17,798 bases of DNA from Ignavibacteria bacterium. GTDB lineage: Bacteria; Elusimicrobiota; Endomicrobiia; PHAN01. The position numbers and the translations under genes are program-made. The stretch is from NCBI GenBank assembly GCA_041694835.1, contig JBGFRZ010000084.1, positions 1 through 17,798 of the forward strand. Direction: 5' to 3'. The number at the start of each line of letters is the position of its first letter. Positions within the stretch are counted from its first letter, which is position 1. Shown here one piece after another: positions 5,301 to 17,437 of this stretch. The notes beneath the pieces were generated by a model. That model was given only the letters and a program-made list of their open reading frames with translations. It did not search any database and was not told the DNA's origin.

Positions 5301-6767
5301 TTACTCTTCAAATTTAAGTACTGTAAAAATGTAGAGTTCCGTCGAAGGTTCCTTCCACGCTTCCGGGTCTAAACCCGCTTTTTGCTGGCAGAGTTCTGAA
5401 AGAAATTCCTCTTTTTTTGAAAAGTGCTCCCATACTTGTGGCAGGAAAAGTCCCCCTCGTCGCCCTTTTTTTATAAAAACCCCGTGCACATTTGGTTTTA
5501 TCGCATCGGAGGAAGATGCGCGTTTCATGGGCGATAATATGGAAATCTCTATTTTTGCTTTTTTAAATTCTTCTTTCGAAATTGGTGGAAATCTCGGATC
5601 ACTCGTGGCCGCCTCTATCGCCATATCGGAGACCGCCTCTATAAGAGGTTTTTGTGGAACGGTCGTTCCTATGCAACCTCTTAATTTCCCATTTATGGTC
5701 AGCGTCACAAAAACAGATGCATTCTGCCTCAATTCATCGTCTGCGGTTGAAGGGATTGAAATTTTTTTGCTGGCAAGGTGCTCCGAAATACTTTTCCTTG
5801 CGAGCTCCAAAAGAAATTTCTGATTTTTTTCAGAAATTTTAAATTCTTCCTCTTTTAATTCTCCCTTTTCACTTTTTATTTTTGATTTTTCACCCACATT
5901 GACAAAGGCGGCCGCACCGTATCCCACGACCCTCGAGCTGTCGCCGGAAACGTCAGATGAGTTCGAGTAGTTTAGAACTATCGCCGTCTCTGCCCCGAGC
6001 AATTTTGATGCGTGCATCGTCGTGTAAACCGCCTCCCGGCCGCACAAGACGCAGTCGAGATTATCCATCCCCTTTTTCATCGTTGCATCAATTGTTCTTG
6101 AAAGATGCTCAATGTCGAATTTTTCAATGGCTTTTAGCGCTTCAAGATCCGAGAGTCTTGCATCCCTGTCCGACGGAAAATGCGACATATCGCTTGATGC
6201 GATTAAAAGGGCTTTCCTGCTGGATTTTTTTAAGACAGTGACGATGTTTTCAGCGAGCTTTTGGCAGTCTTTGAGAGAAAATGTTCCGCTTAAAAGTATC
6301 GGGACTATCTTGAAATTTTTGATGGTCAGCTGAAGAAATGGCAGCTGCACCTCGAGCGAGTGTTCGGGATGGTGAGCGGATATATTCGCTTCAAGTAAAG
6401 TTGAGTTTTTTATAAGTTCGGCCGCCAGGTCCTCATCCACGTCAACCTTGCCGAGCGGGGTCAAAAATGCCCCTCGCGGATAGACGGCGCCTTTCTTAAG
6501 ATAGTAGTTGTGGCTGTTCCCTATTAAAATAACGGTCTCAAACATATTTTCCGTCAACATTCCGTAGCCATAGGATGCCGTTTTGGCGGAATATATGTAT
6601 GCTGCGTGCGGAACCATAAGGCCGATAAGAAGACCTTCCGTTTTTTGAGCCGGAACATTTGAAAGATATCCGAGAACCTCGGTTCTTAATTTTGTAGGAT
6701 TCATTGGATAGAACTGCCCCGCCACCGCTGGTTGTCTTAAGTCGGCTTGTGTTCTGATTTCGGACAT
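5301..6767 (-). CDS. amrB: AmmeMemoRadiSam protein B-A fusion (Memo-like dioxygenase fold + AMMECR1 domain)
   Basis: RQPAVAGQFYP, PHAAYIYS, EHSLEVQLPFLQ, SSDMSH, VVGYGA (Memo family) followed by FVTL...LRGCIG, DPRFPP, GLFLPQVW, KAGL (AMMECR1). ATG 6767 has a GGAGGGAG SD; ATG 6854 is the alternative. Confidence 0.92.
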   Translation of the reverse strand: MSEIRTQADLRQPAVAGQFYPMNPTKLRTEVLGYLSNVPAQKTEGLLIGLMVPHAAYIYSAKTASYGYGMLTENMFETVILIGNSHNYYLKKGAVYPRGAFLTPLGKVDVDEDLAAELIKNSTLLEANISAHHPEHSLEVQLPFLQLTIKNFKIVPILLSGTFSLKDCQKLAENIVTVLKKSSRKALLIASSDMSHFPSDRDARLSDLEALKAIEKFDIEHLSRTIDATMKKGMDNLDCVLCGREAVYTTMHASKLLGAETAIVLNYSNSSDVSGDSSRVVGYGAAAFVNVGEKSKIKSEKGELKEEEFKISEKNQKFLLELARKSISEHLASKKISIPSTADDELRQNASVFVTLTINGKLRGCIGTTVPQKPLIEAVSDMAIEAATSDPRFPPISKEEFKKAKIEISILSPMKRASSSDAIKPNVHGVFIKKGRRGGLFLPQVWEHFSKKEEFLSELCQQKAGLDPEAWKEPSTELYIFTVLKFEE

Positions 6768-6863
6768 AATATCTCCCTCCGGATAAATTATTGTTAAAAT
6801 TGCAAGAATAAATAAATTTCGTTTTCGTCTTAATTTTTCCGCTGAAAGATACATCCCGCCTAT

Positions 6864-6935: not shown

Positions 6936-6963
6936 TTGAAAAAATCAGAAAAAAAAGTATACT
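6936..6963 (+). promoter_or_regulatory. Putative sigma70 promoter for the deoC-BMC operon
   Basis: TTGAAA (6936-6941), 16-nt spacer, TATACT (6958-6963); GGGGAG SD before ATG 7006. Confidence 0.45.
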
Positions 6964-7005: not shown

Positions 7006-8457
7006 ATGGATATGAATCTTGTTGAAAAAATCGCAAAAGAGGTTATATCGGATTATTCAAAAAAATCTCCGAGAGGAAAAAAAATTCTTGTAATTTTCAT
7101 GGGCGGGGACAGAAACATCGACGACGCCCTGGAAAGCGTCAGGCAGATGAGTCTGTCTTGTGAAGTCAAGATTGTAGTGACTCGCGCTGGCTCATCCGTT
7201 ATAGGTAGAGAGCGAATAAAGAACACGACTGGCGCTTCATGGATAATATTGGATGATGGAAAACAAGATTCATTAGAGCTATCGTTGTGGGCTGATGTTC
7301 TGGTCATCGCCACCCTGACGCTCAACGGTCTTTCGAAGATAGCCAATCTTATAACGGATACTTTGCATTCCAACATCGTCGTAGGCTGTCTTGAAAGGCG
7401 GATTCCGATAATCGCCGCCAGAGACGCCGTATTTTGTTCCTGCCATCCCGAACCTGTGTCTGGATCAGGACTTTCAAGAAAAGTCGAGTCCTACATCGGC
7501 GAACTCAAAAATTTTGGAATAACCGTTACGACGGCAAAAAATCTTTCGAGGGAAGTTTCGTCAGTTTCAGATTATGCCTCAAGAAAGGTGGAAGTCACAT
7601 ATGGCACCGCCGGAAAAGTTTTCGCTCTTCCACTTGCAAAATTTGGTCCAATCATAGACAACTGTTCCGCATTTAAAGACGGGGTTGATTGCTCGAGTTG
7701 CGGAAAATGTGTCGAGAAAAAATCGGGCTCCGTTGAGGCGGTCATATCCGCCGGTGCCGACAGGATAGGGGACAGCTCTGGAGCTTCGGCGTCTCATCTT
7801 GCTTCGTACATAGATCACACGCTTTTGAAGGCGAACGCGACGCAGGAAGAGATAGGGAAACTTTGCGAAGAGGCGAAAAAATATAAATTCGCATCCGTTT
7901 GTGTCAACCCCGCGTATGTGCCGCTCTGCGCTCATCTTCTGAGGGGTGGCATCGTAAAAATTTGCACCGTCGTCGGTTTTCCTTTGGGAGCGACCACACC
8001 TACGGTTAAAGCAATTGAGGCGAGGGATGCCATAGCCAACGGCGCCGACGAGGTGGATATGGTGCTCAATGTCGGTGCGGTGAAATCCGGAAACTATCAG
8101 CTTGTTCTGGACGACATAAAGGCGGTGCGCGATGCAACTCGGGGCAAGATACTCAAAGTCATACTTGAGACGGCTTATCTGACGCGCGACGAGAAAATAA
8201 AGGCGTGTCAGCTTTCGAAGGATGCCGGTGCGGACTTCGTCAAGACGTCGACCGGCTTTGGTCCCAGCGGAGCTACCGTGGAAGATATAAAACTTATGAG
8301 GGAAACCGTCGGCCCGGTCATGGGTGTTAAGGCTTCCGGCGGCATACGTTCAACGCAAGACGCCGCGAAAATGGTTGAGGCGGGAGCGACGAGGGTTGGT
8401 GCGTCGGCGTCTGTCGCTATCGTGACGGGCAAGGACGCCGGTAAAGGGAAATATTAA
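7006..8457 (+). CDS. deoC: Flavoprotein (HFCD-like) domain / Cys-rich linker / deoxyribose-phosphate aldolase fusion
   Basis: C-terminal ~220 aa is clear DeoC ([57 protein letters not shown]). N-terminal ~185 aa resembles the Flavoprotein family ([34 protein letters not shown]). Confidence 0.9.
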
Positions 8458-8465
8458 ACAGATAA

Positions 8466-8569
8466 GGGGACAGAGAACAGAGGACAGAGGACAGGGGACA
8501 GAGGTCAGAGAAAATCTCATCTCTCATCTCTCACTCACCCCTCATCTCTCGCCTCTGCCCTCTCATCTC
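8466..8569. repeat. Bipartite heptamer repeat tract (purine-rich then pyrimidine-rich)
   Basis: GACAGAG/CAGAGGA-type units (8466-8510) followed by CTCATCT-type units (8515-8569), partly complementary. Confidence 0.85.
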
Positions 8570-8589
8570 TAAACTAAATCGGAGGAAAT

Positions 8590-8871
8590 ATGGCAGAGGT
8601 AAAAGAAGCACTGGGGTTGATTGAAACGAGGGGGTTGGTTGCGCTTATCGAGGCGTCGGATGCTATGGTCAAAGCCGCAAAAGTTCGTCTGGCGGGTTAT
8701 GAAAAAATCGGTTCGGGACTTGTGACGACCATGGTTCGTGGAGAGGTCGGCGCGGTACGCGCCGCTGTCGAAGCCGGAGCTTCCGCCGCCCAGAAAGTGG
8801 GCGAGCTTGTCAGCGTTCATGTCATACCGAGACCTCACGACGATCTAGAAAAGATACTACCGAATAAATAG
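8590..8871 (+). CDS. Bacterial microcompartment hexameric shell protein (BMC-H, PduA/EutM-like)
   Basis: [34 protein letters not shown]...[24 protein letters not shown]...SVHVIPRPH. Confidence 0.97.
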
Positions 8872-8911
8872 CGGCATGTAACAAAAAAACCCGCTCGGCT
8901 TTTGAGCCTTC

Positions 8912-9229
8912 ATGGATAAAAGCGATATCGTAGATATAATAACTCATCTCCTTGGCGTCCGTAAAGTGCGTGCCGAAAGCACGTTCGAAGATGTCAGGCG
9001 AAAAAACCCATCCGAGGAAAAAAAGTATAAAAGCGGTTTTTTTACAAGGCAAAAGTATAATGAACCATTTACGCATCTTAAAGGAGGTCGGGTGTTCATT
9101 TCAGAGTATGACTTAAAGGGGATGCTTCGGGAAAATTCGAACGAAATCACTATTCCGAAAAATGCCATAATAAGTCCGCTCGCCGCTGAGATAATACTTG
9201 AAAAAAATATTGAAGTGAAAAGGATTTAA
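8912..9229 (+). CDS. Small hypothetical protein, probably BMC-associated
   Basis: 105 aa between BMC-H and pilT; amphipathic N-terminal helix DIVDIITHLL; C-terminal FISEYDL...ITIPKNAIISPLAAE resembling the ITxxD...IITPxAxD module of BMC-locus proteins. Confidence 0.65.
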   Translation: MDKSDIVDIITHLLGVRKVRAESTFEDVRRKNPSEEKKYKSGFFTRQKYNEPFTHLKGGRVFISEYDLKGMLRENSNEITIPKNAIISPLAAEIILEKNIEVKRI

Positions 9230-9231
9230 TT

Positions 9232-10311
9232 ATGCCTTACGATGTAAAAAAACTCCTTGAGATAATGCTCAAGAAAAATATATCAGACATACATCTAAAG
9301 GCGAACTCCGCGCCGCTTATTCGCCTTAACGGCGAGTTGATGGAAGCGTCTTCGGAAAAATTGAGTCCCGACGCAATCAGGAGCGTCGCGGATGCGTTGC
9401 TCGACAAGGAGCAAAAGAAAAGTTTCGAAAGCGAATATGACATAGATTTTGCGTATTCAGTTGAAGGGCTTGCCCGGTTTCGTGTAAACATCAGTATGGA
9501 GAGAGGAAACCCGACTCTTGTCCTTAGGGTTATTCCTACAAAAGTAAAGTCCTTCGAAGATCTTAATCTTCCCGCAAGTGTTCTTACAAAATTATGCAGC
9601 GAGTCGCGCGGGCTGGTTTTGATAACCGGCATCACGGGGGCGGGCAAGACAACAACGATGAACGCGATGATAGATTACGTTAACTCAAACATCAAATGCA
9701 AAATAGTTACGGTGGAAGATCCCATAGAGCACTATCATTTCGACAAGAAGTCGTCCATATCTCAGCGGGAAATCGGCAGAGACGCTAAATCTTTTGAAAT
9801 GGCTTTGAAATATGTTTTAAGACAGGATCCAGACATCATCGTTATAGGCGAACTCAGGGATTATGAATCGATGAGGGCTGCTATGACGGCCGCCGAAACG
9901 GGGCATCTCGTAATGGCGACTATACATACAGTCAACGCCGCTCAAACCGTCGAAAGAATCATCAGTTTGTATCCCCCTCACCTCGAGGCTATCGTCCGGT
10001 CGCAGTTTGCAAATGTCATTAAGGGGATTGTGGCGCAGAGACTTGTTCTGAGCAAAAATAATTCGATGCTTTATCCTATAACCGAAATTATGATAGGGAC
10101 ATCCTTGATAAGAAACATTATAACAGAGGGGAAGTACTCCGAGATAAATAAAGCTGTAGAGCAGGGTTCATTTTATGGAATGAAAACTTTTGATCAAAAT
10201 CTGTACGAACTTTGTATGGAAGGGAAAATCTCTACTGAAACGGCCCTTGAAAACGCGACAAACATCGATGATATCACTCTTCGCCTGAAAGGAATCGAAC
10301 GCACGTCTTAA
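9232..10311 (+). CDS. pilT: PilT/PilU-family type IV pilus retraction ATPase
   Basis: SDIHL, RFRVN, Walker A GITGAGKT, VEDPIE, LRQDPDIIVIGELRD, His box AETGHLVMATIHT, LIRNIITEGK, GMKTFDQ. Confidence 0.92.
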   Translation: MPYDVKKLLEIMLKKNISDIHLKANSAPLIRLNGELMEASSEKLSPDAIRSVADALLDKEQKKSFESEYDIDFAYSVEGLARFRVNISMERGNPTLVLRVIPTKVKSFEDLNLPASVLTKLCSESRGLVLITGITGAGKTTTMNAMIDYVNSNIKCKIVTVEDPIEHYHFDKKSSISQREIGRDAKSFEMALKYVLRQDPDIIVIGELRDYESMRAAMTAAETGHLVMATIHTVNAAQTVERIISLYPPHLEAIVRSQFANVIKGIVAQRLVLSKNNSMLYPITEIMIGTSLIRNIITEGKYSEINKAVEQGSFYGMKTFDQNLYELCMEGKISTETALENATNIDDITLRLKGIERTS

Positions 10312-10334
10312 TTCGAAAATTAAAAAAGCAAATA

Positions 10335-12086
10335 ATGTTTAAAAAATGGGAATTCAACCTACTCCCCTCCGAGAAAGATAATTCACGGTGGCGGTTGAAA
10401 ATGCAAATATCCGAAGATGAGCTCGATAAAGTGATTGAGGCGCTGCCGGGGAATAAAGGCCGACCTTTTATCGTCGAGGACGGCGTTTATGATTTTGGTT
10501 TATACTTTTATAATCTGAGTGAATCAGACTACGACAAGATAAAGTTCGCACTCGAAAAAGTATGCCGGGAAGGAAAAGCCGAAAAATTCAGTCAGAATGC
10601 CCCCCCTGATTTTTTTTCGGATCTGGCAGGAGAAATCGAAAAGACGTTTAAAACAGAAGAGACGGACAACTCCGAAGAACCATCAAAAAAGGAATCCAAG
10701 AACGAACGGAATGTTACGACCAGAGAAAAACACGCGTACAAGCAGGATGGCGCTCCCCATCGCGCTTTGGTTGAAGATGTGCCACTGAATCCAGATTATA
10801 GTTTTGAGCAGTTTGTCGTAGGCCCCAACAACAGATTTACCCATGCGGCGGCTCTTGCGGTGGCAAATGCTCCGGGCAAAACCTACAACCCCTTTTTTAT
10901 ACACGGCGGCGTGGGATTGGGGAAAACTCATCTTATGCAGGCCATAGGTCAGCATGTCCGTAAAAATTTTCCGGATTTGAAGGTTTTTTACATTACGACG
11001 GAGGCGTTTGTCGCAGGCGTGATTGATGCCATAAGCAGTGGGGGGGCGACATCGTTAAGGAATTTCTACAAAAATGTTGACATCCTGCTTGTTGACGACA
11101 TTCAATCCCTATCGCAGTCCGAATCGACACAGGACGAGTTTTTTCACATATTCAATCTTCTGCACCAGAACAAAAAGCAGATTGTGATAACCTGCGATCG
11201 CCCGCCAAAGCTTTTAACCATTCTTGAGGACCGCCTTCGCTCGCGGTTCGAGTGGGGACTTATCGCCGACATAAAATCCCCGAGTCTTGAGACGAGGGTC
11301 GCGATATTGAAGAAAAAGGAAGAGTTGGAACATCTTGTTCTTGACGACAATATCCTCCTTTATATCGCCTCTAAGCTTAAATCAAATGTGAGAGAGCTTG
11401 AAGGGTTTCTTAAAAGGATTACGGCATATTCGTCTTTGACAAAACAGGATGTTGACATAGAACTTGTAAAAAACCTGATGGCCGAACTTTTGCCTAGCGA
11501 AGAGGAGCCTCACATTACGGTCGCCGAGGCCGAGCAAAAAGCTCAAGCGGTAACCGTTGTTCCGCCGCCTCCACCCCCGGAAAAGATGGAAACACAGTCG
11601 TTGAAGGCTGAAGAAATAAAAATTGTTTCCGGCCCACCGACGGCTCATGGCGAGCTTCATGCCGCACCGCTTCCGAAAGTGGATCTCACTCTTAAACCCA
11701 TGGATGTTGTATTTTTTTATCCCTCGGGCTCCGAGAAGGAGCTTGCTAAAGTAAAGGAAAAATTCGCTGAAGTTATAAAGAAACACAAGTTGAAATTTCG
11801 GCTTGTCTCGATATTCGATAAGTCGTATGAGATTAAGGGGAAAATAAATTATGCGCTTTTCACCGAACTTTGCAAAACAAATAAGACGAACATAGCCGTG
11901 GTGCTGTCCCCCCCGCCCAACTCGGAGGTAAAGGAAGATGAATTTTCGAATGTATTGGGAGCTCTGATGAGCGACGAAAAAATTTCATTCCAACTCGTGC
12001 CATGGCAGGAACTGAACAAAGATTACAGATATCTAAATCTTGCGCTTGATATCACTTTGAGCAATACAAGCGTGAAGGCAGAATAA
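10335..12086 (+). CDS. DnaA-family AAA+ ATPase paralogue with non-canonical N- and C-terminal domains
   Basis: Well conserved DnaA domain III (LNPDYSFEQFVVG, YNPFFIHGGVGLGKTHL, LLVDDIQ, RLRSRFEWGL, SNVRELEG) but no domain IV HTH; Pro-rich linker and a different ~128-aa C-terminal domain instead. Confidence 0.88.
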   Translation: MFKKWEFNLLPSEKDNSRWRLKMQISEDELDKVIEALPGNKGRPFIVEDGVYDFGLYFYNLSESDYDKIKFALEKVCREGKAEKFSQNAPPDFFSDLAGEIEKTFKTEETDNSEEPSKKESKNERNVTTREKHAYKQDGAPHRALVEDVPLNPDYSFEQFVVGPNNRFTHAAALAVANAPGKTYNPFFIHGGVGLGKTHLMQAIGQHVRKNFPDLKVFYITTEAFVAGVIDAISSGGATSLRNFYKNVDILLVDDIQSLSQSESTQDEFFHIFNLLHQNKKQIVITCDRPPKLLTILEDRLRSRFEWGLIADIKSPSLETRVAILKKKEELEHLVLDDNILLYIASKLKSNVRELEGFLKRITAYSSLTKQDVDIELVKNLMAELLPSEEEPHITVAEAEQKAQAVTVVPPPPPPEKMETQSLKAEEIKIVSGPPTAHGELHAAPLPKVDLTLKPMDVVFFYPSGSEKELAKVKEKFAEVIKKHKLKFRLVSIFDKSYEIKGKINYALFTELCKTNKTNIAVVLSPPPNSEVKEDEFSNVLGALMSDEKISFQLVPWQELNKDYRYLNLALDITLSNTSVKAE

Positions 12087-14980: not shown

Positions 14981-15115
14981 TTTCGTCCTTCCGTAAACCA
15001 TCGCTTATTTTACGGCGTTGGGTCTCGTTTCTGCCGTAACCTGGTTTTTATCCTATCGGCTGATGTTATCGTTTAAAACGCTAATCCATTGTTTGCCAAA
15101 TGTAGGAGGTTAAAG

Positions 15116-17437
15116 ATGTCGGAAAGTTATACGCAAGTGAAATCACGATTTGTAAAATCTTCGGAATTAATCGACGAGAAAAACAGATTTGCAGAACAAG
15201 ACATCCATATATTGGAACGTATGTTCATTGCTTACCGCGCCATTGCAATTCTTATGTTTAATTTTGCGCAGTCAGGTCATCCCGGGGGTTCAATTTCAGT
15301 CGGTCGGATACTTCTGAATCTGGTCTTTAATAAAAATACGAAGATGGATATTGGCGACTTGAGTCGAGGCGATTCAGATGTAATCGGTATGGCCGCCGGC
15401 CACAAGGCTCTCGGTTTGTATTCGTTCCTTGGTTTGCTTTTTGAGATGGTAAAGCTTAAAGACAAAAAACTCTATGATTCGATAAAAAGCAAAATACGGT
15501 TTGAAGATCTGCTCGGCTTCCGAAAAAATCCTGCCACGCTCACGCCTCTGATGAAAAAATACGGTTCCAAAAGATTGGACGGTCATCCGACGCCCGAAAC
15601 TCCGGGTGTTGTTCTTGCCACGGGAGCATCGGGCGTGGGTTTCGGCGCGTTCGGCGGATATGCTTTTGCGAAAAACGAGTATTTCGAAAATCCGCCGGTT
15701 ATAAACATCATTGAGGGAGAAGGCGGCATGACGCCCGGCCGCGTTCACGAAAATCTCGCTCATTTTTGGGCGCTTGACATATGGAACTTGATAATACATG
15801 TGGATTGGAACAACGCGAGTATCGATGCCGACAATGTGTGTTCCGAAGAGGGCTGCTGTGGTCAGTACGTCAACTGGAGACCTTACGACCTCGGAGTGTT
15901 GCACGGCTACAACGTCGTTTTTGTAGATAACGGCTGCGACAACGAGCACATAAAAGCATCGCAAAATTACATCTTCGAGAAAACATTTGCGGAAAAGCCC
16001 TCCCCGAATATGATAGTTTATCGTACCAAAAAAGGAGAGGGCTACATGGAGGGGAGGAAGTCCCATGGGGCGGGATATAAAATGGATTCCGACGAATATT
16101 TTAAAATGCAGAAAATTTTCGAGGATACTTTCAACGTCAAATTCATTAAAACCCCGCCCTCCGCCACCTCCGAAGTCAAAGAGGAGTATTTCTACAAAAA
16201 CCTGCTCATTGTCGAAAATGCGCTCGAATCCGATGGACAACTCATTGATTTCGGCTACAATGGACTGATGGTGAGCCGCGACGCTCTCGGGAATGCCGCA
16301 AGAAGGCCCAAAAAAAATGTAGCGAGAGTCTCCGTTATTTTCGAAAAATCCGATGTTCTTGACATTAAAAATCCGCCTGCGGAAATTTTATATAAAGCCG
16401 GGGATTCCATAACTCTGCGTGAGTCGCTCGGCAACACACTTCATTATCTCAACAAGCTTTCAGGAGGCGGGTTATACGGTTTTGCCGCCGACCTCGTCGG
16501 CTCGACGAGCCTGAACCTTATGTGCGAGGACTTCCAAAAAAAGGGATTTCACTCTTGTGAAAATCCTTATGCGAAGATTATTCCAACCGGCATCTGCGAG
16601 GATGGAAGCTCCAGTTTGATTTCCGGGATTTCGGCCACAGGTCATTACATGGGGGTCGGAAGTTCCTACGCCACATTTATGAGTCCCATGGGATTTACGG
16701 CAGCAAGGTTGTTCGCGATAGCTTATCAGTCGAAGCATGGCAAAGACATTCTGCCAATAATACTCATAAACGCTCACGCGGGACTAAAAACCGGCGAAGA
16801 TGGGCCGACCCATGCTTGCCCCCAGACGCTGTCACTCTGGAAGAGTTTCAATAAATTACAGTGGAAGGTCATTACTCTGACGCCTTGGGATCCGAATGAA
16901 ATCTGGCCGCTTATGGTGGCTTCACTAAGAGAAAGACCGGTCGTCATACTGCCTTATGTCAGTCGACCGGCTGAGATTGTGGTTGACAGAAAAAAGCATA
17001 ATTTCCCTGACATTTCGGAAGTAGTTGACGGAATATACTATATCCGTCGCGCGAAAAAATCAAAAGCAACGGTATTATATCAAGGTGCAGAAGTAGGTAT
17101 TGAGTTGCCAAATGTCGTTGAAACACTGGACAGAGAAAAAATAGATGTAAATATCCTGTATGTTTCAAGTTCAGAATTGTTTTCATATCTGCCAAAGAAA
17201 AAACAAGATGAAATTCTACCTGAAGAATTCAAACAAAATGCGATGGCTATAACGGGCTTTACTATTGATACAATGTATGAATATCTACTCTCTGAAAAAG
17301 GGCGTGACTTTTCTTTGCATCCGTTCAAGAAAGGAATATTTTTAGGCTCAGGTCCCGGTGGCGAAGTCCTTAAACAAGCCGGCTTGGATGTCAAAAGCCA
17401 AATCCAAACGATAAAAAAATATATCAAGAACTTGTGA
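15116..17437 (+). CDS. Transketolase-like TPP-dependent enzyme (divergent)
   Basis: AGGAGG SD before ATG 15116; SGHPGGSIS, AAGHKA, LDGHPTP..PGV..ATG, YRTKKG, SHG, ADLVGST, GICE, HAGLKTGEDGPTH; TPP motif reads EGEGG...DWNN. Confidence 0.85.
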   Translation: MSESYTQVKSRFVKSSELIDEKNRFAEQDIHILERMFIAYRAIAILMFNFAQSGHPGGSISVGRILLNLVFNKNTKMDIGDLSRGDSDVIGMAAGHKALGLYSFLGLLFEMVKLKDKKLYDSIKSKIRFEDLLGFRKNPATLTPLMKKYGSKRLDGHPTPETPGVVLATGASGVGFGAFGGYAFAKNEYFENPPVINIIEGEGGMTPGRVHENLAHFWALDIWNLIIHVDWNNASIDADNVCSEEGCCGQYVNWRPYDLGVLHGYNVVFVDNGCDNEHIKASQNYIFEKTFAEKPSPNMIVYRTKKGEGYMEGRKSHGAGYKMDSDEYFKMQKIFEDTFNVKFIKTPPSATSEVKEEYFYKNLLIVENALESDGQLIDFGYNGLMVSRDALGNAARRPKKNVARVSVIFEKSDVLDIKNPPAEILYKAGDSITLRESLGNTLHYLNKLSGGGLYGFAADLVGSTSLNLMCEDFQKKGFHSCENPYAKIIPTGICEDGSSSLISGISATGHYMGVGSSYATFMSPMGFTAARLFAIAYQSKHGKDILPIILINAHAGLKTGEDGPTHACPQTLSLWKSFNKLQWKVITLTPWDPNEIWPLMVASLRERPVVILPYVSRPAEIVVDRKKHNFPDISEVVDGIYYIRRAKKSKATVLYQGAEVGIELPNVVETLDREKIDVNILYVSSSELFSYLPKKKQDEILPEEFKQNAMAITGFTIDTMYEYLLSEKGRDFSLHPFKKGIFLGSGPGGEVLKQAGLDVKSQIQTIKKYIKNL

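Follow-up and report, generated by a model that had tools for sequence, protein, structure and literature searches.

Sugar-phosphate-utilizing (SPU) bacterial microcompartments (BMCs) of the SPU1 type are known from Elusimicrobia (Sutter 2021, PMC8217296; Dwyer 2024, PMC11585597). Their loci encode TPI, the phosphotransacylase PduL (PTAC), an aldehyde dehydrogenase (AldDH), PduS, the deoxyribose-phosphate aldolase DERA (DeoC) and RpiB, together with a triplet of pentamer shell proteins (BMC-P), two hexamer (BMC-H) paralogues with the interface residues KAAK/PRPH and KAA(N/D)/PQPH, and a PduT-type trimer protein (BMC-T), with no BMC-T-dp. The SPU1 locus is sometimes split into two locations, and fission of a main BMC locus can give rise to satellite loci (Sutter 2021, PMC8217296). 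Here, we analyzed a cassette of three genes, encoding a DERA with an N-terminal fusion, a BMC-H and a 105-aa protein (below, the small protein), at positions 7006-9229 of a 17,798-nt contig (JBGFRZ010000084.1, or C27 in our numbering; below, the window). The host draft genome (GCA_041694835.1, G000) comprises 1.9 Mb in 89 contigs and is 97% complete. We estimate at about 0.85 the probability that the cassette is the conserved 3' end of the Elusimicrobiota SPU1 locus, split off by fission and forming one metabolosome with the part of the locus on contigs C7 and C82.

The enzymes and shell proteins of this genome are those of SPU1, with two differences. The locus is split exactly between the third BMC-P gene (BMC-P3) and the DERA gene, a breakpoint shared with a sister genus, and its main part has been invaded by toxin-antitoxin and restriction-modification genes. 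As in other fission satellites, a shell gene and enzymes lie away from the main locus while being inside it in relatives; the difference is that here the signature enzyme itself has moved. A DERA-flavoprotein fusion with a predicted encapsulation peptide (EP), 'Flav+DERA', is also known from Hodarchaeales, and the available text of PMC12747264 reports EP-dependent recruitment of this protein to shells. The Hodarchaeales loci are archaeal and, according to the same text, were acquired from Myxococcota, and the two fusions are likened here by description only.

Gene content of the locus

Searches with PF00936 and PF03319 found one BMC domain and no BMC-P in the window. In the genome, PF00936 yielded three more BMC domains, all on C7, which make up one BMC-H and one tandem BMC-T, and PF03319 yielded BMC-P genes at C7 9972-10220, C7 23080-23340 and C82 245-502. 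Beyond the window BMC-H, the C7 BMC-H and the C7 tandem BMC-T, the search found no BMC domains in the genome, and BMC-T-dp is absent. The statement of the initial annotation, made from the window alone, that there are only three BMC-related genes is thus true of the window and not of the genome, as further BMC genes are found on C7 and C82.

The gene order on C7, as determined with Pfam and NCBIfam, is TPI, PduL, BMC-H, BMC-P and AldDH (NF011927, 2e-175; the TPI/PduL/AldDH region spans 7944-11777), then inserted HicAB, HEPN/nucleotidyltransferase, HepT-like and DNA methylase genes, a PduS-like gene (18566-19870), a toxin-antitoxin pair, the tandem BMC-T (20389-20940, carrying a CPGK motif), two RpiB genes, genes for a TPR protein and a 186-aa protein, and BMC-P, after which the contig ends. 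C82 opens with the third BMC-P. Together with the cassette, this gives DERA (pfam01791), two copies of RpiB (pfam02502), AldDH, PduL (PTAC), TPI (pfam00121), the BMC-P triplet, two BMC-H paralogues, a PduT-type BMC-T with the pore cysteine and a PduS homologue, that is, the membership of SPU1. The BMC-H proteins form two clades differing in the interface residues, KAAK...PRPH in the window and KAAN...PQPH on C7.

All components for which the initial annotation had advised a genome search, namely BMC-P, BMC-T, RpiB, AldDH and PduL, are therefore present on C7, with the third BMC-P on C82. As the rest of the SPU1 locus is found elsewhere in the genome, the cassette is an ordinary satellite. This was one of two options considered in that annotation, which also held that a full SPU locus elsewhere would leave nothing beyond an ordinary satellite. 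Sutter 2021 defines a satellite as a locus distal to a main locus with BMC-H and BMC-P and holding shell proteins, with or without enzymes; in these terms, the window on C27 is a satellite locus of the main locus on C7/C82, the genome being a draft assembly.

The inserts in the main locus occupy C7 11808-18237 and 19873-20365 (7809-14238 and 15874-16366 of locus L008) and carry genes for HicA/HicB, a HATPase protein, a HepT-like protein, HSDR_N, an N6/N4 DNA methylase, HEPN/nucleotidyltransferase and a ParE-like pair. Restriction-modification or other inserts are found at the same joints in L036 and L046, and the SPU1 operon seems to tolerate or attract such cassettes. The TPR protein, which has a signal peptide, and the 186-aa protein, with a lipoprotein-like N-terminus, are encoded at C7 21973-22948 (L008 17974-18949) between RpiB and the second BMC-P gene (BMC-P2), and the pair is kept at that place in the same-class loci L024, L025, L027, L036 and L046. 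Both are apparently exported proteins, although encoded inside a microcompartment operon.

Synteny and the split

We compared 18 loci from related genomes. The order DERA, BMC-H of the window type, small protein is kept in fifteen of them. In eleven, the DERA gene comes directly after BMC-P3 of the main locus, so that the cassette simply closes a single long operon. The exceptions are L026, which stops right after DERA; L027, with BMC-H and the small protein located elsewhere; L031, where only BMC-H and the small protein precede the contig end; and L023 and L036, with genes inserted before DERA.

The split was traced in G001, a genome of the same family. There, the main locus is internal to a contig of 301 kb, and its last genes, BMC-P2 and BMC-P3, are followed by TGT and an HD-domain gene; the same TGT/HD neighbors are found beside BMC-P3 on C82. 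The DERA module of G001 is on a separate contig, where the divergent Memo-AMMECR1 gene precedes it, just as in the window. Since both parts are inside long contigs in G001, the split is a real rearrangement, present in two genera; a mere assembly break was considered as well and rejected on this evidence from G001.

The Memo-AMMECR1 gene (window 5301-6854, reverse strand) is a fusion of the AmmeMemoRadiSam system proteins B and A, encodes 517 aa, and is divergent to DERA and upstream of it. In the window and in G001 it marks the new junction made by the split of the locus.

Genes of the cassette

The three genes of the cassette are consecutive open reading frames (ORFs) on the forward strand, as predicted initially (a DeoC fusion, one BMC-H and one small protein), and the fusion partner of DeoC proves to be a flavoprotein (HFCD)-fold domain. 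The features are as follows (pLDDT, predicted local distance difference test).

6936..6963, + strand: promoter-like site (TTGAAA, 16 nt, TATACT), agreeing with the consensus at 10 of 12 positions and lying 43 bp ahead of the DERA start codon
7006..8457, + strand: DERA, the SPU1 signature enzyme, 483 aa, with a putative EP helix, an HFCD/flavoprotein-fold domain, an extension with a cysteine motif, and the aldolase
7012..7059, + strand: N-terminal helix of DERA, residues 3-18, EP-like (AlphaFold2, conservation in homologues)
7081..7569, + strand: flavoprotein (HFCD)-fold domain of DERA, residues 26-188, with divergent FMN motifs (pLDDT >90, weak HFCD matches)
7663..7710, + strand: four-cysteine motif C220, C229, C232, C235, inside the low-confidence extension (residues 191-260)
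7789..8430, + strand: TIM barrel of DERA, residues 262-475 (TIGR00126, model, Foldseek)
8590..8871, + strand: BMC-H shell protein, 93 aa, of the KAAK/PRPH paralogue class (PF00936, E 1.4e-29)
8912..9229, + strand: 105-aa accessory protein with an EP-like helix, a disordered linker and a module of the EutQ-N/EutT-N type
8918..8977, + strand: N-terminal helix of the small protein, residues 3-22 (AlphaFold2; 'DDIVDII..L' kept in most of 40 family members)
8978..9091, + strand: linker of the small protein, residues 23-60 (pLDDT 51-67; variable in length and sequence)
9092..9223, + strand: C-terminal alpha/beta module of the small protein, ~45 aa, residues 61-104 (pLDDT about 88)

The window BMC-H is a canonical, EutM-like protein (NF012018 at 139 bits). 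The promoter-like site may serve as the detached module's own promoter; in this region 15 such sites were found against 5.2 expected from shuffles, all defined by consensus match only. The G+C content of positions 7500-9000 is 52-53%, compared with about 44% elsewhere in the window, and the rise coincides with the highly conserved Ala/Gly-rich coding regions of DERA and BMC-H, with no sign of foreign origin.

Deoxyribose-phosphate aldolase

The C-terminal part of the window DERA is a typical aldolase. It matches PF01791 (DeoC) at residues 267-466 with E 6.5e-21 and TIGR00126 with 300.7 bits (4.6e-90), above the equivalog cut-off of 117.3 bits. In the AlphaFold2 model (mean pLDDT 84.5), a helix at residues 3-18 is followed by a Rossmann-like domain (26-188), a low-confidence region (191-260, pLDDT <60) and a TIM barrel (262-475), which Foldseek places on the solved DERAs of S. 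suis and B. halodurans, with up to 64% identity. Residues D351, K413 and K442 align with D102, K167 and K201 of E. coli DERA (numbering as in the Fig. 2 legend of PMC11585597), and are invariant in both alignments that we built, one of 60 fused homologues and the other of 28 sequences, namely 27 short forms and the window DERA from residue 190. The best-matching named homologues, with 76% identity, come from Elusimicrobia metagenome-assembled genomes.

The 60 fused DERAs share the N-terminal helix ('LVExITKEV'), a linker ranging from 0 to about 60 residues, the flavoprotein-fold domain and the four cysteines, of which C235 is invariant and C220, C229 and C232 are conserved at 90% or more. In the 27 short DERAs of Elusimicrobia (310-370 aa), this helix is likewise present, together with a 'GTAGKVF' stretch and the four-ligand motif, but the flavoprotein-fold domain is missing; in the 28-sequence alignment, the last two cysteines are invariant, and the first two ligands are Cys or His. 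Because the short forms share these three elements, the alignments identify the long DERA as the short SPU1 form carrying an insertion of about 170 residues after the putative targeting helix. Non-BMC DeoC proteins lack the N-terminal extension altogether: in genomes without the fused form, matches start at query residues 263-268, and the ORFs are 210-268 aa long.

The inserted domain matches PF02441 (Flavoprotein) at residues 25-136 (E 1.6e-10, 41.2 bits, the gathering score being 22.7), and has weak sequence matches to AtHAL3a (E 0.003), Dfp, EpiD and DpaB, which suggests a distant relationship to HFCD proteins. Among the 60 fused DERAs, 24 match the middle of TIGR02536 and 28 match coaBC_dfp. 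For the window protein, the TIGR02536 score is 23.5 bits over a partial profile, below the cut-off of 152.6 bits, so that the domain is a related piece and not a member of this family. Strong matches to the domain were found in 12 of the 301 Elusimicrobiota genomes sampled for our phylum survey, while the available text of PMC12747264 calls the fusion 'uncommon in BMC'. The terms 'flavoprotein' and 'pfam02441' do not occur in the main texts of PMC8217296 and PMC11585597 or in the supplements of Dwyer 2024 (file 6 excepted), and in the supplements of Sutter 2021 pfam02441 is given only for the FRAG types and SPU4. Neither this domain nor the small protein is mentioned in the available SPU1 text of Sutter 2021 supplementary file 4.

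Encapsulation-peptide-like helices

Following Dwyer 2024 (Table S2), we considered as EP-like a helix of more than 10 aa with a poorly conserved, likely unstructured linker. Such helices are found at residues 3-18 of DERA and at residues 3-22 of the small protein, where the linker comprises residues 23-60, and a similar helix pattern heads all four proteins DERA, AldDH, PduL and the small protein. The suggestion, already made in the initial annotation, that the helices of DERA and the small protein act as encapsulation peptides is thus supported by their conservation and, for related enzymes, by published work (PMC11585597, Table S2; available text of PMC12747264).

Small protein and its C-terminal module

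No Pfam family was found for the small protein, and it has no PF06249 cupin and hence is not a EutQ; it shares with EutQ only the part ahead of the cupin, and may act as that part does. Its AlphaFold2 model (mean pLDDT 74) consists of a helix (residues 3-22), a disordered region (23-60) and an alpha/beta domain (61-104). An exhaustive HMMER search yielded 42 cluster representatives, and 40 of them were aligned, two proteins of 1880 and 1624 aa being left out. In the alignment, the N-terminal helix and the C-terminal domain are conserved, whereas the linker between them varies in length and composition.

In the phylum survey, the small protein was found in 65 of the 301 genomes and BMC-P also in 65, and a comparison of the two lists gave 64 genomes with both. 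The two discordant genomes are G007, which has BMC-P without the small protein and with DERA at the contig end, and G160, with a weak match to the small protein and no BMC-P. The protein is encoded behind DERAs of both the short and the long form and is thus a component of SPU1 in general. In the literature searched, we did not find it described as a constant part of SPU1 with a module of the EutQ-N/EutT-N type.

In 32 of the 40 aligned members, the C-terminal module matches the final 45 positions of the TIGR02536 profile (positions 161-205 in the window protein). The score of the window protein is 30.6 bits over a partial profile, again below the cut-off and again marking a related piece, not a member. 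We also compared the module profile with 23 proteins encoded in the eut region of E. coli K-12. The only matches were EutT residues 2-46 (hmmsearch E 1.3e-6, hhalign 1.8e-5) and EutQ residues 2-45 (2.1e-5 and 2.6e-4; aligned up to residue 46 or 49 in places), the next best values being 0.15 and 0.015.

Of the 22,120 open frames of its own genome, a single one encodes the module. In other Elusimicrobiota it heads EutT-like adenosyltransferases and class II aldolases and ends helix-linker-module proteins of 96 and 103 aa in a EUT locus with a cupin-only EutQ. The EUT-type BMC loci in question are L056 and L059 (genomes G143 and G157), in which EutQ has 152 aa, the 96- or 103-aa protein adjoins EutN, and EutT carries the module at the N-terminus. 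The class II aldolases (PF00596) with an N-terminal module are encoded at L057:3972-4850 on the reverse strand and L058:2860-3645 on the forward strand (genomes G076 and G133), away from the BMC locus of these SPU1-bearing genomes, and are likely satellite cargo.

The N-terminus of Salmonella EutQ has been studied experimentally. According to the available text of PMC12487888, helices H1/H2 (deletion 9-41) are needed for shell association at the EutL/EutM interface, a flexible region follows them, and cargo EPs are bound by H3/H4 with affinities in the micromolar range (Yang et al. 2025); residues 1-99 form a bridge from shell to cargo and target GFP to Eut BMCs, and loss of any part of this region separates the shells from a polar cargo aggregate. 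Pull-downs in the available text of PMC4827028 (Held et al. 2016) show that EutM binding is lost on removal of residues 1-100. The plan that the window protein would share is a shell-associating two-helix module of ~45 aa, a flexible linker and an element engaging cargo EPs. The differences are that the order is reversed in the window protein, its module being C-terminal, and that it has neither H3/H4 nor a cupin, the other end being an EP-like helix in a protein of only 105 aa. Other small BMC accessory proteins are TIGR02536 (eut_hyp), a free EP-bearing component of SPU4 and EUT2, and a EutQ-like protein of ~130 aa from SPU6 (Sutter 2021, supplementary file 4). They share the flavoprotein-fold domain and/or the tail module with the window proteins; unlike in TIGR02536, in the window the two parts are on separate polypeptides, one fused to DERA and the other being the small protein.

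A profile search of PDB sequences with the small-protein family returned chance-level matches only (SKA1, 0.007; KtrC, 0.39), a word-indexed search for homologues found one relative, and a search among longer proteins (252-2000 aa) found none. In a protein atlas, the best scores, 0.82-0.87, were below the 0.9 level and pointed to PF15953 PDU_like (PduM), which matches one of the 40 family members with E 0.095. A complex predicted for three BMC-T, the window BMC-H and residues 50-105 of the small protein scored 0.01, the mark being 0.32; this prediction was run without controls and weighs neither way.

Proposed metabolosome

From the gene content, synteny, the split, the homologies and the co-occurrence, we propose that the products of the cassette and of the genes on C7/C82 would jointly build one metabolosome. 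According to the pathway known from the literature, AldDH and PduL would process the aldehyde, and PduS with the PduT-type BMC-T would recycle NAD+. The window BMC-H (KAAK/PRPH) would tile with the C7 BMC-H (KAAN/PQPH), and DERA would be targeted by its N-terminal helix. The small protein would most likely be a shell-cargo linker, with its C-terminal module on the shell and its EP-like helix, on the flexible linker, associating with the EP-bearing cargo core of DERA, AldDH and PduL.

Because the module is homologous to the shell-associating N-terminus of EutQ, we give about even odds to its docking on the shell with the EP-like helix joining the cargo core. More broadly, the small protein could be the universal minimal shell-cargo tether of SPU1, and the module an unnamed shell-docking domain of ~45 aa that serves metabolosomes in general as a second means of targeting, in addition to the EP, with the same domain present in EutQ, EutT, BMC class II aldolases, the tail of TIGR02536 and the small EUT proteins. 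All these components taken jointly make a tentative proposal, with the chances slightly on the side of its being wrong.

Several points weigh against the proposed reading, some of them against its individual steps. The Elusimicrobia affiliation rests on the names of the DERA homologues. The adjacency of C7 and C82 we infer from G001. The module match is modest, with hhalign probabilities of 62-78% for EutT and 18-42% for EutQ; the correspondence of the E. coli EutQ residues to Salmonella H1/H2 is assumed from orthology; and a Foldseek search of PDB with the small-protein model found no similar solved structure (best E 0.36). That the two N-terminal helices bind as EPs is likewise our inference. 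Sutter 2021 (PMC8217296) stated that the SPU1 DERA extensions 'do not resemble EPs', contrary to which Dwyer 2024 Table S2 (PMC11585597) lists 'EP Nterm'. Finally, in a hydrophobic-moment scan the fraction of shuffles reaching the observed value was 0.11 for DERA and 0.62 for the small protein, so that the helices are not distinguished. Since the scan is not discriminating, the helices are supported by conservation and architecture and not by amphipathicity; of the amphipathic N-terminal helices claimed initially, what stands is that both are modeled as helices and conserved.

Alternative explanations

The second option of the initial annotation was a miniature microcompartment standing on its own, in which sheets or tubes of the single BMC-H scaffold the aldolase independently of other shell genes. 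Such an arrangement could be suspected from the window, which lacks BMC-P, BMC-T, AldDH and RpiB genes and has a promoter-like site upstream of DERA. However, the genome encodes the full shell and enzyme set, the window BMC-H is one of two charge-complementary paralogues that co-occur in SPU1 loci, the same three genes end a complete operon in 11 of the 18 related loci, and the acetaldehyde produced by DERA requires the AldDH encoded on C7. This leaves the stand-alone system very improbable, and the stripped version of the initial annotation is not upheld. A larger unit has also to be considered, in which the PilT-like ATPase and the DnaA-like AAA+ protein encoded downstream belong with the microcompartment, for instance by taking up or handling DNA as a supply for deoxyribose catabolism; DNA breakdown is the presumed source of the SPU substrate. 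The PilT gene directly follows the small-protein gene in 10 of the 16 loci with downstream sequence, in several families, with the DnaA-like gene next in most of these loci, and in the window it starts 3 bp after the small-protein stop. Still, PilT is absent at that place in the other six loci (L031, L032, L035, L039, L040, L041), the genome has about eight ATPases of the T2SSE family, neither protein has an EP-like N-terminus, and a neighborhood conserved within one phylum may be plain synteny. We consider this larger unit improbable, and the link of PilT to DNA uptake for deoxyribose catabolism is a speculation.

The remaining alternative concerns the fused domain. The flavoprotein-fold domain of DERA and the small protein could be the halves of a split TIGR02536-like protein, which re-associate as a redox-active or shell-docking unit, with a flavin and/or a metal center at the four cysteines, wired to PduS/BMC-T. 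The two parts are indeed collinear on the TIGR02536 profile (positions 54-141 in the DERA N-domain, 161-205 in the small protein), the family matches recur in the fused DERAs (24/60) and small proteins (32/40), and the locus has PduS and the CPGK BMC-T. A free eut_hyp protein with an EP is present in SPU4 loci (Sutter 2021, supplementary file 4), and the available text of PMC13181095, a 2026 atlas, predicts, computationally only, a trimer-on-trimer complex of Listeria EutL with a TIGR02536 protein. On the other hand, the small protein is far more common than the domain, and it is encoded behind short DERAs without the domain in L030, L034, L035 and L037-L040. As it is so widespread and also follows domain-less DERAs, the flavoprotein-fold domain cannot be its primary partner. 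A role of the small protein confined to partnering this domain was likewise rejected, given 65 against 12 of the 301 genomes. Compared in the alignment with the residues that we take to bind FMN, the canonical FMN-binding motifs of the domain look diverged, and the Cys/His switch of the first two ligands would fit a structural zinc site better than an Fe-S cluster. The split TIGR02536-like protein is therefore unlikely, if somewhat less so than the larger unit.

Neighboring genes

Downstream of the cassette, on the forward strand, the window encodes a PilT/PilU-family ATPase (9232-10311; TIGR01420, 7e-126) and a 583-aa DnaA paralogue (10335-12086; PF00308, 1.1e-66; TIGR00362, 353.9 bits), which lacks the DnaA_C DNA-binding domain. 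The canonical DnaA with DnaA_C is encoded on contig C84. Many genomes of the phylum have the paralogue behind PilT in the region downstream of their SPU1 locus. Further on, positions 15089-17437 (forward strand) encode a 782-aa transketolase-like protein (TIGR00232, 7.8e-30, far below cut-off) without an EP-like N-terminus. In G001, G009 and G053 the gene is likewise kept, at a distance of a few genes downstream from the module. According to Dwyer et al. 2024 (PMC11585597), linking ribose-5-phosphate and GAP in SPU BMCs would need a transketolase.

Implications

The cassette is a catalogued BMC type in a catalogued arrangement, since split SPU1 loci have been noted before. Nonetheless, callers of BMC loci that need BMC-H and BMC-P together would label C7/C82 as a SPU locus that lacks the signature enzyme, and would take the window for an orphan, although the two belong together. 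The small protein marks these BMCs as faithfully as the pentamer genes do (64 of 65 genomes). If its module is a portable shell-docking domain, this would explain how SPU cargo cores are attached to shells, and the module would be a compact tag for loading synthetic microcompartments.

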